A stretch of 45,637 nucleotides of DNA from a virus (lineage: Duplodnaviria > Heunggongvirae > Uroviricota > Caudoviricetes): positions 1 through 45,637 of IMG/VR virus record IMGVR_UViG_2529292910_000009, one strand, 5' to 3'. Within the stretch, counting starts at the first letter, position 1. Each line of letters begins with the position of its first letter. Shown piece by piece: positions 1 to 9,000 of this stretch. Made by a program: the position numbers.

Positions 1-3000
1 ATAGCCCGTCATTTCTGCGCTCACACGTCCCAACATTGAAAAACATGCAAAGCTTTGTAAGCCGATGCAAAGCTTTGTGTGTCTCACTTTTGTCCCAATA
101 CCAATCCGAATCCACCCTTTGTCATCATTGAGAAATGGCAAGGAAGAAAAGGATGTTACTGCACGATTTGACAAATCCGCCAGAGCTATCGCATACTGAT
201 CGCACTGAACAAATAAGCGGTCTCCGCACCCGATAGCTTTGCGGCTTTTTTATGCCTGCAATTTGGCATAGTTACATCCGTACAAAGGTCGGGTGGAGAG
301 GCGTAATACAACACCCGCAAGGGGAATATGCCCAGAGCTTCTTATTTGGCTCAGTTGACACCCGACCGCCAGCTACTAACTGGCGGTTATAAACTAAACA
401 AATAAGGAGGTCATCATGACCAGTCAACTCATCCCCGTATTCAACGGTTCTATCTCAAACCAAGCAGCCCTTCTATGCAATGCTCGCAATCTACACGCTT
501 TCCTTGGGGTTGGTAAACGCTTTGCATCGTGGATAACAGAACGTATTGCTGAATATGGTTTCGTTGAAAATCAGGACTATATGATTGCTTCCCAAATTCG
601 GGAAGCAAAAGGTAGAGGCGGTCACAACCGCAAGGAATACCACCTCACCCTCGACACAGCCAAAGAGCTTGCGATGGTTGAACGTAACGAAAAAGGCCGC
701 CAGATACGCCGCTACTTCATCGAGTGCGAAAAGAAACTTCGCAACATTCAGCCAGTACAAACTGAGCAGCAATTCACAGCCGAAGAAATCATCCTCCTTT
801 GCTACATGCAGCTCTGGATGGAAAAAGCCCAGGACCTCAGCAAACACCTGTATCCCATTATGAAAGAGCTGAACTCCTCATACACGAACAAGCTGTATGA
901 CATTGCGTTTGAGACCATCTACATGGTGACGAAGAACAGAGACGCGCTACTAAGGGAGGTAACACATCTCGACATGTCAAGTTCCGTTATCCAGCGGGCC
1001 ATGCCAATGCTGAAAAGTCTGCGGGCAAGACAATTTGAATTCTGAAACCAAAGGAGCTTCGGCTCCTTTTTTCATGCCTGAAGGAAAGGAAAATGGCAGA
1101 TATCATCGACAATGCCGCTGAAATCGAAGAATTGCAGCGCAATCTCTCCCTGCAAAAATACAAATCCGATAGTAATGCCCCATCTGCTACTCATTGTTGC
1201 GAGTGTGGCGATCCGATAGATGAGCGGCGACGCCTGGCTGTTCGTGGATGCCGAGCTTGCGCCAGTTGCCAGCAGGATATTGAACTTATCAACAAACAGA
1301 GAGGTGTGAAGTGAGCATAGACACCACTATAACGATCGATACGGCCCTCAACACAGGTCTGGCGCTTCTTGGTTATTTTTACATTATGTTCTGCGCCGGG
1401 CGGTGGCTATCGCTGTTGTTACTGAAAAAATGGAATAAATGCCGTAAGCAGGATCAACGCCAGAAGGCAATGAATGCGTTTTCCGAAGCCTTCGGGATTG
1501 ACAGCATGGAGCCAGGAGGTCCAGCTCGCGTAATTAGCAGAGGTGACGTTGTAATTCTTGTATACCGGAGCGAAGAGAAAAATGAGCGAGATTAACTATC
1601 AGGTACTGCGTGAAAAGGCAGAAAAAGCAACGCGTGGTGAGTGGTCGCTCGAATATGGAGAGAACCGATTTGATGGTGATGATGCACTAATTCATCGCGA
1701 GGCTGCTGGATATATTCCCATTTGCAGAATTGAAGGAGCACATCCTGAAAGCGGTTTCGATGAAGATTTCCAAATGGAACAGCAGGCCAATGCTGAATTC
1801 ATCGCCGCAGCCAATCCGGCTACCGTGCTGGCACTGCTGAATGAACGGGAAAGAAACCAGCAATACATCAAACGCCGCGACCAAGAGAACGAGGATATTG
1901 CGCTTACTGTTGGGAAGCTGAGAGTTGAGCTTGAGGAGACAAAATCAAAACTCAACGAGCAGCGTGAGTATTACGAAGGTGTTATCTCGGATGGGGGTAA
2001 GCGTATTGCTGAACTGGAGAAAAGCGAAGAGCAACTCATCAATGAGCGTGACCATGCTGAGTCCGCTTTAGATGATATGTACTTTGCAGCAACAGGTAAC
2101 AGGCCGGAGTGGAGCAACTGGTTCGGCTTTTCAGATGCTGTCGATGCCGTGGTTGACAGAATTGCTGATTTAGAAGCTAAACAATGCATTGAAGAGATGA
2201 GTAAACAAAGTTGCGAAGCTCGGGAGCGTGATTTGTTTGAATCATGGGTAATGCATTCAATTTGTATTTCCAAATCGACGCTTGAAGGATTGCGCACCGA
2301 AACTGGATACCGTAACGCGACCTTATCAGGAACAGACTTCAACCGCATGTGGGAACAATGGAAATCTATCCGCGCCGCTGGCATTTCGCATCAAAGGAGA
2401 GTGAGATGGCGTTAACACACCGAGAACTCTGTCAGATTGCGTACAAGTTCCTTAAGCGCAACGGGTTCAAGGTTTGCTTTCATGACCGCTTTATAGCCGT
2501 AACCAGTACCGGAGAACAGCCAGATGCTATGGGATTCAGAAATTCAGCATCATGCCTGATAGAGGCGAAGTGTTCTCGTGCTGACTTGTTGGCAGATAGA
2601 AAAAAGCGTTTCCGTAAAAATCCGTCTCTTGGAATGGGCGACTGGCGATTCTTTATTAGTGAGCCGGGAATTATTTCAATTGAGGATTTACCACCTGGCT
2701 GGGGATTACTTCACGTTGTTAACGGAAGAGTACGGAAAGTACATGGGTGGCCCAAGGGTAATTGCTGTTGGGGTAATCCTGACGATAAGCCATTTACTGG
2801 GAATAAGCAGGTTGAATGCGATTACATGTTATCTGCATTAAGGCGCATGGAGTTGAGAGGGCACCTTAATGAAATATATGACGGTGTAATTGTTAATAAG
2901 AAAGAAGGAAACGCGGCATGATCACTATTACCAAAGAGCGACTACTGACAATCAAGCAGTGGCGCGAAACATACGGACCTGGTATCCGGTCGTACATCTT

Positions 3001-6000: not shown

Positions 6001-9000
6001 CTCACCTTCCGGCACTTTGAACGGATCAGGCTTACCGCTACGGGAGTACTGAGACGATGCGTCCGCGCCATCCTCACGCGGCGTGTAACCTTCCCGCACA
6101 CGCTGGCCTAACGTGCGAATAGTTTCGCGAACAAGTCTGATATCGTTCAGTTCCGTCGGCTTCAGTAACCCCGTACGACGCAGTACCCCTTTGACCAGGG
6201 CAACAACACGCTCCCATGCCGCCACGAATTTAATCGGCTGCTTCTCTGCCATATGCGCCAGAAATTCACCCGCCTGCACTTCCGGTGATTCCTTACCATA
6301 AGACGCATCAACCTTACGCCAGACTTCACGGATGGTGGCGTTATCACTGTCACGGGTTTTCAGCACGGTCTTAATAATCGTCTGATATTCCGCTGGCGTG
6401 ACTACATGCTCCATTGCATGGTGAATAATCTCGTGACGTAACTTCTCGTGAACGGTCCGCCCGTCAGGGATGTTATCCGCCACCAGGACAATTTCACGTT
6501 TATCCGGACGATAGAACGCGTGCACCTTGCCGTAACCGTCGAATGATTCACCCGCCAGTGCTTCAGCCTCTTTCTGTGACTTCACCACGCGGACCTTCAG
6601 GTCACTGTCCTTAATGCCACTAATCACGCCACGGGCAACAGCTTCAACCTGCGGGACCGGACTGCCTTTGGCTTCCGCACTGCGGTTAACATCCGAAATC
6701 AGATTGCCTTCAGGTGTGCGGGTCACGCCCTTACGGGAATAAAACGCAACTCCCTTGTCCGTCTCACGGGTTTTCAGTGTTCGGAACAAGTGATCGAATG
6801 CCTCACGAATACCGCCATCCAGTTCTGCATTCGTCGGATAAGCGTAGGTGTCCGGCTGTCCATGGTCATCCGCCTTACGGATATTGACCAGATAATCATT
6901 CTCCACGCCAGCCATACGCGCTTTATCCTGAACATAACGCTCAAAGGCTCGCGCCGCCATTTCAACATCCGTTGACCAGTACGGTTTTGAACGAACGCCA
7001 TCCAGGCGTTCAGAACGACGCAACATGTCACTGCTGTTAATGGCTTTCATCACGCCTTTAAACGCGTCGTAAACCTCCTGACGTACCGGATATTCCGCAT
7101 CAACATACCTGCCGTCTTTAAATACGCGCCCGGCACGCTGTGCTTCCGTCATATAGTCGCCACCTGACGTGATCTTCCCGTCAGTGGAAACATCATAACG
7201 ACCAAAATAATTATCCAGTGAATGGAACCATTCGTGGGCCAGCGCCCCCGGTCCGTTACCTTTTGTCAGGTTGATTGCCACCTCACCCGGCTCATAGTGT
7301 GCCGCCGCCTTACCCTTACCACGGGCACCAAAAGCAAGCCCAAGACGACCGTTCAGAGAAAGCGCTTTTGTCGGCACGTTCAGCACGTCAGCCAGGTCAT
7401 GCAGCGAGTCATAAGCCCGGTTCAAATCAGCCTGACGACGCGGACTTTCCACATAATTACCAAACTGCACACCACGAAAACCAAACGCATCACTGAACTG
7501 CTCCGGCGAAACATCCCCCTTGCGGCGTTCTGGTCCGGTACGATCGCGGTTGGTGGCGTTACGCTGCTCCTCACGCGAGACTTCACGCAGCGCCTTCACC
7601 TGATTAACCAGCTCATCACGATGTGTGCGCACATAATCATGTGCATCACGGGCAGACTCAAAACCGCCCTTCAGTTTCTGCCTGTTTTTGCCATAACCGA
7701 TAAAAATGTCGCCACTGGCCTTATGCCGGTACACGTCAAAGGTTATTCTGTCATCAGCAGAGGTTGCTGGCGTTTCCCTTTCTCTGGAGCCTTGTTCATC
7801 GAAATATGCTTTCGCCTTTTTCAGTAACTCATCCCGGCTTTCCGAGAAAAAGAGGTCGCGCCCCTTGCTATCACGAAGCGAATACATCATTTGCGGCGGA
7901 TCGTAACGTTTTCCCCCGACAAACGAATAAACACCGGACCTGACACGATAGCCGGATGCTTTATCAATCTGCAATGCAGAAAGCGTACGGAGCAGTTTCC
8001 AGGTATCCGACATGCTCCGTAACCCCGGCTTTCCGGCTGCATCCCTGCCGCGATGTATTTTTTCTCCAGCCCGGCGGTCAGCACTTTTCGCAGAGTGACA
8101 TCACCCAGCTTTTTAGTCACACCGCCTGCAACCATATCCGGTACAAGCGCACCAATCAGGTTAACCCCTTTCGCTACCCAGACCGCTGAATCATCATATC
8201 CTTCAGTCATCGGTGTATTCAGCGCCCGCTGCGCCCCCGGCGACATCTTGCCAGTCAGCCATTCATCCGAGGCTTTAGCGCCGCCACTGACTGCCTTGCC
8301 TGTGACCTTCAGACCTTTACCGACAGTATCAGTAACCGCATTTTTTCCATCAGGCAGAGTGTCGATGACCTCATCCGCCCCCTTGCTGCCACCGACAAAA
8401 ATATCCTGAACAGTTGCGACTCCCGGCAGCCCCATACGGCTGAACTCATTTAAAATACGTGCCCCTGTTTTTACCGGGCTCTGAATCATCGCATCACCGA
8501 GTCCACGGGCCATTTCCCCTGTCCCCCGGACGGACTGGGCGACACCTTTCCCCATAGTTGGCAATACATCGCCCAGGCTGAACGACGTGCTGTTGTCCTT
8601 CCAGCGATTGGGATCGGAGAAAAACACATCATAGCTGTCAGTCTCTCCCGGCTGCTGAATGTTCAGGCTGTTGCGGCTCTGGTTGCCAAATTGCGCTTCA
8701 GGGCGCTGTTCATCGGAATAAGCCATACAGACTCCATAAAAAAACCCGGCACAATGACCGGGTATCAGGAAATAGTATTAACGGGAATGGTGAATTACTG
8801 CGCGTAATTCTGTTTCAGACCACGGATAAACTCAGATGCAGAGGCCGCGCTATCATCCCTGGCCTGTTCCCCCCTGGCCTTTTGAATACGGAGAAAATTC
8901 GCATACCCGTGTTCCAGCAATTTCTGATTCTGAGGCTCCAGCATTTCTGGCTGACGGGAGGCCACTTCTCTGGCAAATGCCTGCTTATCCGGATCATCAC

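Follow-up and report, generated by a model that had tools for sequence, protein, structure and literature searches.

The 1706-codon open reading frame (ORF) at positions 2893 to 8013 of the window, the 45,637-nucleotide stretch of viral DNA that was analysed, is very probably a deletion remnant (a pseudogene fragment) of the gene for the giant polyvalent virion protein of 933W-like phages. A sequence-only reading could place the ORF in no named family, but the family is known and both of its metallopeptidase clades have already been named (PMC5512222, PMC3650047); the window holds a degraded copy, not a new effector. In the explanation that we favor, five illegitimate-recombination deletions would have wrecked the late region. 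One, of 2329 nt, would have turned the gene into a 279-codon 5′ ORF and the 1706-codon 3′ ORF, a second, of 1117 nt, would have cost it its last 92 codons, a third would have truncated an essential upstream gene, and the other two would have removed the capsid, portal, and terminase genes.

A split and trimmed gene

The ORF itself is as first described in that it begins with ATG and runs for 5.1 kb without a stop codon. It lies on the minus strand, a plus-strand reading of 2893-8013 being rejected by stop codons throughout, and it is a gene fragment rather than a complete gene. What had been taken for one uninterrupted ORF ending the late operon is the 3′ part of a gene that is a single 8352-nt CDS in RefSeq phage and E. 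coli records. This gene is known as Sp5 ORF80 (ECs1242), VT2-Sakai orf71, and phi24B vb_24B_48 (gp47), and belongs to 933W-like Stx-type short-tailed phages (Sepvirinae). The single uninterrupted CDS of ~2783-2811 codons that would mark an intact orthologue of Sp5 ORF80 or phi24B gp47 is absent from the window, where the parts of the gene are arranged as follows.

2893..8013, minus strand: 1706-codon ORF, what is left of the polyvalent-protein gene at its 3′ end; its residues 1-1677 correspond to 1015-2691 of the intact 2783-aa protein
7887..8726, minus strand: 279-codon ORF, the true 5′ end of the gene; 232 native codons, then 47 out-of-frame codons
8029..8031: junction left by a frameshifting deletion of 2329 nt inside the gene, with 3 nt of microhomology; the intact protein thereby loses ~residues 233-1009
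7885..7889, minus strand: TGATG overlap between the two ORFs, one base being common to the stop codon of the 279-codon ORF (7889-7887) and to Met43 (7887-7885), an in-frame ATG of the large ORF
2984: junction of a 1117-nt deletion, which took away 280 nt at the 3′ end of the gene, a further gene of 276 nt, and the greater part of a DUF551 gene
2896..2982, minus strand: non-native read-through tail of 29 residues, PGPYVSRHCLIVSSRSLVIVIMPRFLLSY; the DNA past the junction at 2984 is unrelated to the gene

Residues 1-1677 of the ORF are 99.76% identical to WP_000331660, the copy in an E. coli O104:H4 prophage, 93.2% identical to VT2-Sakai/Sp5 (ORF80), and 91.7% identical to phi24B vb_24B_48/gp47, and at least 80% of the ORF sequence is found in 186 records of the phage collection. 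The 279-codon ORF begins at the start codon used by the intact gene, and the 1706-codon ORF is read in a different frame. We read the junction sequences directly, and on either side of each junction blastn aligns the window colinearly with the intact O104:H4 prophage at 99.9% identity. The ORF differs from the intact copy by 3 mismatches in 5048 nt, and it is because the damage is so recent that the four Pfam domains and both peptidase domains described below have been kept. At the C-terminus, the 1117-nt deletion replaces the last 92 codons with the 29 read-through residues, which form the sole strongly hydrophobic stretch of the ORF. A simple hydropathy scan for membrane-spanning helices picks out this artificial tail alone and nothing in the native residues that the ORF retains, and lends no support to a channel-forming C-terminus.

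The exact 1706-aa product is absent from protein records because gene callers start at Met43 and give a 1664-aa product instead. Neither the junction at 8029-8031 nor that at 2984 occurs in any of 5,426 complete E. coli genomes or 50,697 phage records. The exact 279-codon product of the 2329-nt junction is present in three other assemblies, namely two E. coli drafts from the DECA collection and one independent Logan read assembly, and the deletions are therefore real. One of the DECA drafts is 100% identical to positions 1-18726 of the window.

Two predicted zincin-fold metallopeptidase domains

The domain scan that had been suggested for this ORF finds four Pfam domains (LPD5, LPD1, MuF_C, and LPD38), all far above their gathering scores, and two further domains around the HExxH motifs. 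From the N-terminus of the ORF onward, these are:

7486..7917, minus strand: LPD5 domain, aa 33-176 (Pfam PF18799, 2.5e-43)
6739..7542, minus strand: metallopeptidase domain 1, aa ~158-425, of CLCA_X type, with HEWFHSLD at 7213-7236
6766-7005, minus strand: LPD1, inside metallopeptidase domain 1 (Pfam, 3.5e-23)
6079..6681, minus strand: metallopeptidase domain 2, aa ~445-645, with no Pfam model and with HEIIH at 6421-6435
5569..5838, minus strand: MuF_C domain, aa 726-815 (Pfam PF18819, 7.6e-18)
3043..3660, minus strand: LPD38 domain (Pfam PF18857, 1.3e-46; PMC5512222)

Both motifs noticed in the sequence-only reading are present, HEWFH (within ALAHEWFHSLD) at aa 260-264 (window 7222-7236) and HEIIH (within RHEIIHHAMEH) at aa 527-531. 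Two HExxH motifs are observed against 0.037 expected from composition, and two or more arose in 13 of 20,000 residue shuffles of the ORF. The motifs are identical across the four intact orthologues compared with the ORF and are conserved well beyond them. In domain 1, H260, H264, and H239 are each present in 149/149 homologues, E261 in 148/149, and D267 in 146/149, with E351 and E358 invariant or nearly so, such that the HExxH is accompanied by a further conserved, putative acidic ligand. In domain 2, where the family consensus is HExx(x)H, H527 is conserved in 86/90 sequences, E528 in 89/90, and a His at +4 or +5 in 89/90, while E583 (6265-6267) is invariant in a 29-sequence alignment and lies on a later helix, within 'AEExxAxxAE'. 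The homologue search for domain 2 returned mostly short partial proteins.

Pfam scans of the separate segments were empty, giving no match for the isolated HEWFH segment (aa 171-337) and only sub-threshold noise for the HEIIH segment (Peptidase_M76, E 0.14), and the domains were instead placed by NCBIfam, the literature, and fold searches. The predicted fold of each HExxH domain resembles zincins, in agreement with the zincin-like character first ascribed to the motifs, and both motifs are thus the predicted active sites of zincin-fold metallopeptidase domains. Residues 158-413 match positions 3-245 of the 250 in NCBIfam model NF041907 (E = 5.9e-46); at 156.9 bits, below the curated 260-bit cut-off, this match marks a homologous domain only and not membership among stand-alone CLCA_X proteins. 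Dipeptidyl-peptidase III (DPP III, M49), considered on account of the HExxGH...EExxA pattern in relatives, found no support from Pfam or the fold search. Searched by sequence against all PDB chains, the intact protein had no match, and the PADLOC defense models matched it in 0 families.

In the numbering of the 2783-aa form, the zincin-fold domains span aa 1172-1439 and 1459-1659, with E1275 and E1542 as the predicted catalytic glutamates. The MuF_C region, which the phi24B preprint calls the metallopeptidase, contains neither of the two domains. A literature search turned up no published zinc-binding or peptidase assay of the Stx-phage protein. Autoprocessing has been proposed as the role of the metallopeptidases of polyvalent proteins (Iyer, Burroughs, Anand, de Souza, Aravind 2017, PMC5512222), and by extension from that literature the two domains (HEWFHxxD and HExx(x)H...E) would most likely process the polyprotein itself into functional parts.

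Damage elsewhere in the late region

The prophage is 933W-like, adjoins ynfF/ynfG, and carries the polyvalent gene last in its late operon. Upstream on the same strand lies lom, as had been noted (10339..11076, Pfam Ail_Lom 7.6e-30). The two genes between lom and the large ORF had been called unknown structural genes; one is the N-terminus of the polyvalent gene at 7887..8726, and the other is the first of two further damaged ORFs.

8795..9787, minus strand: 5′-truncated homologue of Sp5 ORF79, the 421-aa gene that precedes the polyvalent gene, with the junction of a ~2.0-kb deletion at 9833/9834
18280..19155, minus strand: chimeric 291-codon ORF with two deletion junctions, left by the loss of 4.4 kb at ~18507-18516 and of 3.8 kb at 18888/18889

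The ~2.0-kb deletion removed the first ~75 codons of the ORF79 homologue together with small genes upstream of it, and Sp5 ORF79 is essential (PMC5155283). In the chimeric ORF, pieces of the small terminase, portal, and adaptor genes are joined together; the genes for the major capsid protein, the scaffold, and the large terminase are gone from the prophage, as is most of the portal gene. Upstream of the remnant, the prophage still has the late operon with its Q antiterminator region and the lysis genes.

Because the capsid, portal, and terminase genes are deleted, delivery in cis is excluded; on its gene content, this copy cannot deliver anything in a virion of its own. The proposal of a virion-delivered, polyvalent-type effector was therefore right about the kind of protein, given its LPD5, LPD1, MuF_C, and LPD38 domains and intact orthologues that are virion-associated and essential, and wrong about this copy, a remnant that is unable to act as a virion-delivered protein from this prophage.

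Alternative readings of the remnant

A 1664-1706-aa product could still be translated upon induction and have kept or gained a function, for example by getting into, or poisoning, capsids made by co-resident or superinfecting Stx-type phages, or as a protease acting on the host or a competitor. The TGATG at 7885-7889 permits translational coupling and is a possible termination-reinitiation site for the 1664-aa product, which may be expressed and may have residual activity. All recognized domains and both catalytic motifs are intact, the late operon with its Q antiterminator region and lysis genes remains upstream, and the same remnant occurs in at least two strains. With so few mismatches to the intact copy, however, the integrity of the ORF needs no selection, and the neighboring genes bear the same random deletion damage. 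The conserved last 92 residues and ~1000 N-terminal residues are missing from a protein that the phage does not survive losing when the whole gene is deleted (PMC5155283), and the junctions are confined to three related assemblies and to none of the complete genomes. We consider such a functional product unlikely. A specific form of it, for which we see slim prospects, is dominant-negative interference between prophages: upon SOS induction, ribosomes on the late transcript would stop at the TGA of the 279-codon ORF and restart at the overlapping ATG, and the resulting 1664-aa protein, keeping both peptidase domains, MuF_C, and LPD38, would co-package into or disturb the assembly of co-resident or superinfecting Stx-type phages that depend on the full-length protein.

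It is very improbable that the deletions are draft-assembly artefacts and that the real locus is intact. The records with the junctions are short-read drafts from one project and a read-set assembly only, and complete genomes never show them. Against this, identical junctions appear in two separately assembled strains and in the output of an independent assembler (Logan), they are clean, sharing 1-3 nt of microhomology and free of collapse-prone repeats, and five deletions in unique sequence are atypical of assembly error. Finally, a structural protein of tape-measure or tail-fiber type with incidental HExxH motifs is scarcely credible despite the large size, the position at the end of the tail-gene region, and the placing of ORF80 under 'tail formation' in the Sp5 study (PMC5155283), as Pfam, PHROG, and NCBIfam scans find no such family, the phage is a podovirus without a tape measure, the motifs hardly vary among 150 divergent homologues and sit in zincin-fold domains, and the protein is missing from the resolved tail of phi24B; the homology that the sequence-only reading had named as its own refutation is thus absent.

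Implications

With the deletion-remnant reading, the annotation of this region changes: what looked like a giant effector and two 'unknown structural genes' is debris of a defective prophage, and all three late-region ORFs call for annotation as pseudogene fragments. Among the essential components of the Stx-converting phages that spread Shiga toxin genes, the intact protein is the largest and the least understood. Pinning the two HExxH motifs to separate, near-invariant zincin-fold domains provides E1275 and E1542 as targets in the existing Sp5 ORF80 complementation assay.

Comparison with known systems

The closest relatives of the ORF are the intact proteins of Sp5 and phi24B. The protein, of ~2783-2811 aa, is a late product and is present in purified virions, though not seen in the symmetric cryo-EM density. 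Mass spectrometry detected phi24B gp47 in virions, where it is absent from the tail resolved by cryo-EM, and it has been proposed to be an ejection protein (phi24B preprint). A Sp5 ORF80 deletion mutant packages its DNA and yields no plaques or lysogens, a defect that is complemented in trans (PMC5155283). The window ORF likewise closes the late operon, after lom and small genes, and has the same Pfam domains and identical HExxH motifs. Unlike these orthologues, the window copy is without ~residues 233-1009 and the last 92, and is spread over two out-of-frame ORFs. According to the published proposal, the intact protein would be carried within the capsid and leave it together with the DNA.

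The capsid-internal ejection proteins of podoviruses and the N4 virion RNA polymerase are carried in the head, leave it through the tail along with the DNA, and are required for infection. The likeness of the polyvalent protein to them lies in the proposed way of working and is an analogy only, with no sequence similarity found between the ORF protein and the T7 or P22 ejection proteins or solved structures. The N4 enzyme also has a metallopeptidase domain (PMC5512222), but the ORF protein differs from it in having no RNA polymerase module. P1 DarB-like antirestriction proteins (PHROG 10089) match weakly in the C-terminal LPD38 region (aa 1330-1657, 2.4e-25); only this C-terminal module is common to both, the ORF being without methyltransferase or helicase domains.

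Metallopeptidase domain 1 resembles CLCA_X in its HExxH followed by a conserved Asp and in its phage and plasmid distribution (Lenart et al. 2013, PMC3650047). In contrast to stand-alone CLCA_X, the domain is one part of a giant protein, and its Asp lies three residues after the second His. Polyvalent proteins include a metallopeptidase clade with a strand-2 His and an Asp three residues after the HExxH, as well as an HExxxH clade (PMC5512222); the second metallopeptidase in the clade of the ORF has the shorter HExxH spacing, while most relatives have HExxxH. The overall likeness, with no categorical difference, is to the phage-type polyvalent proteins, to which LPD38 is restricted (PMC5512222). 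Like them, the ORF is a giant late multidomain protein that joins zincin-like metallopeptidase, MuF-C, and LPD domains, with several unrelated domains, including the metallopeptidase and MuF-C hubs, in one very large polypeptide encoded in a prophage beside structural and morphogenesis genes.

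Large ORF as Part of a Longer Gene

The 1706-codon ORF at 2893..8013, which a sequence-only reading had taken for one uninterrupted ORF ending the late operon and for a possible virion-delivered effector, is present and ATG-initiated, but lies on the minus strand; a plus-strand reading of the interval was rejected, as its translation is riddled with stops. Both metal-binding motifs claimed for it are there, ALAHEWFHSLD (HEWFH, aa 260-264) and RHEIIHHAMEH (HEIIH, aa 527-531). Since the composition of the protein predicts only 0.037 HExxH motifs, and two or more arose in 13 of 20,000 shuffles, this pair is not a product of chance. 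The exact 1706-aa product has no match on record. The first hint that the ORF is a partial gene is its match to the PHROG 616 profile, which covers positions 1019-2701 of 2793. A Megablast search located the sequence in 260 phage records, most of them from Stx-converting phages; of 5,426 complete E. coli genomes, 1,273 carry it. In intact records, one 8352-nt CDS encodes a 2783-aa protein, as in Stx2 phage 86 (gp35, annotated "LPD5 domain-containing protein") and in E. coli O104:H4 (WP_000331660, annotated "LPD38 domain-containing protein"). Residues 1-1677 of the ORF are 99.76% identical to aa 1015-2691 of the O104:H4 protein, 97.6% to Stx2-86 gp35, 93.2% to VT2-Sakai/Sp5 orf71, and 91.7% to phi24B vb_24B_48. 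Pieces of the gene are frequent in E. coli: of 1,365 matching records, only 426 contain at least 80% of the ORF. The giant gene seems to be hit often by internal deletions.

Direct alignment of the window with the O104:H4 prophage gives colinear blocks of 99.9% identity, interrupted by missing DNA:

9834..8029, end of the upstream gene and first 698 nt of the large gene
8031..2984, codons 1009-2691 of the large gene
2984..2371, resuming within a DUF551 gene, 1117 nt further along

The internal deletion spans 2329 nt, with a 3-nt microhomology at the junction. Because this length is not divisible by three, a 279-codon ORF (7887..8726, minus strand) combines the native 5′ end of the gene with an out-of-frame tail: the authentic start codon, 232 native residues, 47 out-of-frame codons, and a stop. 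The 1706-codon ORF opens at the first in-frame ATG past this junction and runs until a stop is reached. The 3′ deletion removed the final 92 native codons and added 29 read-through residues, the sole strongly hydrophobic stretch of the ORF. That so long a frame is still open reflects the recency of the damage, with 3 mismatches in 5048 nt relative to the intact gene. Upstream of the ATG at 8013, a GGAG read off the sequence is poorly spaced, just one base away. In records that contain the 279-aa junction product, gene callers place the start of the downstream protein at Met43, for a length of 1664 aa. The Met43 ATG and the stop (TGA) of the 279-codon ORF overlap as TGATG, and a Met43-reinitiated product from the remnant is possible.

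The junctions flanking the large ORF were both absent from the 5,426 complete E. coli genomes and from 50,697 phage records. The exact 279-aa junction product is recorded in GCA_000249655.2 (AIFY01000034.1), in GCA_000249675.2 (AIFZ01000022.1), and in the Logan assembly of SRR094136. AIFZ01000022.1 matches window 1-18726 at 100% identity, beyond which it runs into ynfF by way of a ynfG remnant; the accession range AIEV-AIHS, AIFZ included, holds drafts of the E. coli DECA collection. As two strains and an independent assembler concur, the deletions are biological.

In E. coli ML35 (NZ_CP025747.1, 2210242-2210955), a different, smaller internal deletion or rearrangement lies at the same place in the gene, which is still annotated as LPD38 domain-containing protein.

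Late Region and Prophage Setting

Relative to the intact O104:H4 relative, the late region is degraded throughout. The affected ORFs are:

8795-9787, minus strand, 5′-truncated homologue of Sp5 ORF79
18280-19155, minus strand, chimeric 291-codon ORF spanning the junctions near 18507-18516 and at 18888/18889

At junction 9833/9834, a ~2.0-kb deletion took the start and first ~75 codons of the 421-aa gene upstream, a homologue of the essential Sp5 ORF79, along with the three or four small genes that separate this gene from hok/lom. Two more deletions, of ~4.4 kb and ~3.8 kb (junctions near 18507-18516 and at 18888/18889), account for the loss of adaptor-region genes, the N4-gp56-type major capsid protein, the large terminase, a putative scaffold, most of the portal, and some of the small terminase. 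In a single frame, the chimeric ORF joins the 5′ end of the small terminase to a C-terminal piece of the portal (Pfam P22_portal positions 515-594) and an adaptor fragment (SU10_adaptor). The sequence-only reading identified lom correctly, while its "two unknown structural genes" resolve into the truncated ORF79 homologue and a fragment from the N-terminus of the polyvalent gene itself. Between the deletions, genes for a Hok/Gef-family toxin (9966-10106, minus strand) and an Ail/Lom outer-membrane protein (10339-11076, minus strand) are intact; these are morons retained while structural genes decay.

Within the Stx-phage lineage, this prophage is a non-Stx representative, and it sits beside ynfF/ynfG. 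No stx genes were noted among the annotations of the matching O104:H4 prophage interval from Q to the SASA/NanS-type esterase (window near 24900-25400), and ARAGORN found no tRNA genes in the whole window. The terminase remnant is separated from the lysis genes by an antisense histidine-phosphatase gene (19828-20442, plus strand), a likely lysogenic-conversion moron whose annotation in the relative is LPS core heptose(II)-phosphate phosphatase. An inverted repeat of ~303 bp and ~98% identity (770-1072 and 27291-27593) connects two antirepressor-type genes (416..1045, plus strand; 27318..27989, minus strand), a possible substrate for inversion or recombination inside the prophage. Holin/lysozyme genes are still present. 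The early region (35245-45337) encodes a CI-like repressor (HTH and S24 peptidase), a eukaryote-type Ser/Thr kinase (Stk), a RecE-like 690-aa protein, RecT, and a YqaJ exonuclease. As this region is seemingly intact, the prophage may still be SOS-inducible, though unable to make particles.

Function and Comparison with Known Polyvalent Proteins

Mass spectrometry shows the phi24B orthologue to be abundant in purified virions; it is missing from the cryo-EM model, and was proposed to be an ejection protein packaged in the capsid (10.64898/2026.04.10.717836). Deletion of Sp5 ORF80 abolishes plaque formation and lysogenization while DNA packaging remains normal, a defect complemented in trans (PMC5155283). 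Processing of the polyprotein, either prior to ejection or afterwards, is the probable role of the two zincin domains in the intact protein, in line with a general proposal for polyvalent proteins (Iyer et al., 2017, PMC5512222). As an alternative, the phi24B preprint suggests a possible degradation of peptidoglycan (10.64898/2026.04.10.717836). With the gene split and truncated, its essential neighbor truncated, and no capsids buildable, the window copy cannot serve in cis as a protein delivered by the virion. A more novel reading, in which the remnant would be expressed and would disturb related phages, is highly improbable.

Four Pfam domains score far above threshold in the large ORF:

aa 33-176, LPD5
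aa 337-416, LPD1
aa 726-815, MuF_C
aa 1452-1657, LPD38

All four recur in the intact protein, whose first ~1040 residues contain no Pfam domain. A full HMMER scan with aa 160-720 of the ORF gave 5,945 representatives at 50% clustering, mostly of 2,000-5,000 aa. Stand-alone proteins of ~560-600 aa with LPD5, a CLCA_X-type peptidase, and LPD1 occur on many metagenomic contigs (homologues P0187-P0267), an indication that the retained ORF's N-terminal third is a functional module of its own.

LPD5, LPD1, MuF_C, and LPD38 are the signature domains of the polyvalent class, described as giant proteins of many domains that phages and conjugative elements deliver together with the invading DNA (Iyer et al., 2017, PMC5512222). 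While the phi24B preprint credits metallopeptidase activity to the "MuF-C" domain (10.64898/2026.04.10.717836), both HExxH active sites lie in two domains upstream of MuF_C (window 6739-7542 and 6079-6681; MuF_C 5569-5838), one of them without a Pfam model. Earlier publications already cover the gene family and its domain architecture, the two metallopeptidase clades, virion presence, and essentiality; the window copy is, on sequence comparison, a degraded orthologue of this known gene.
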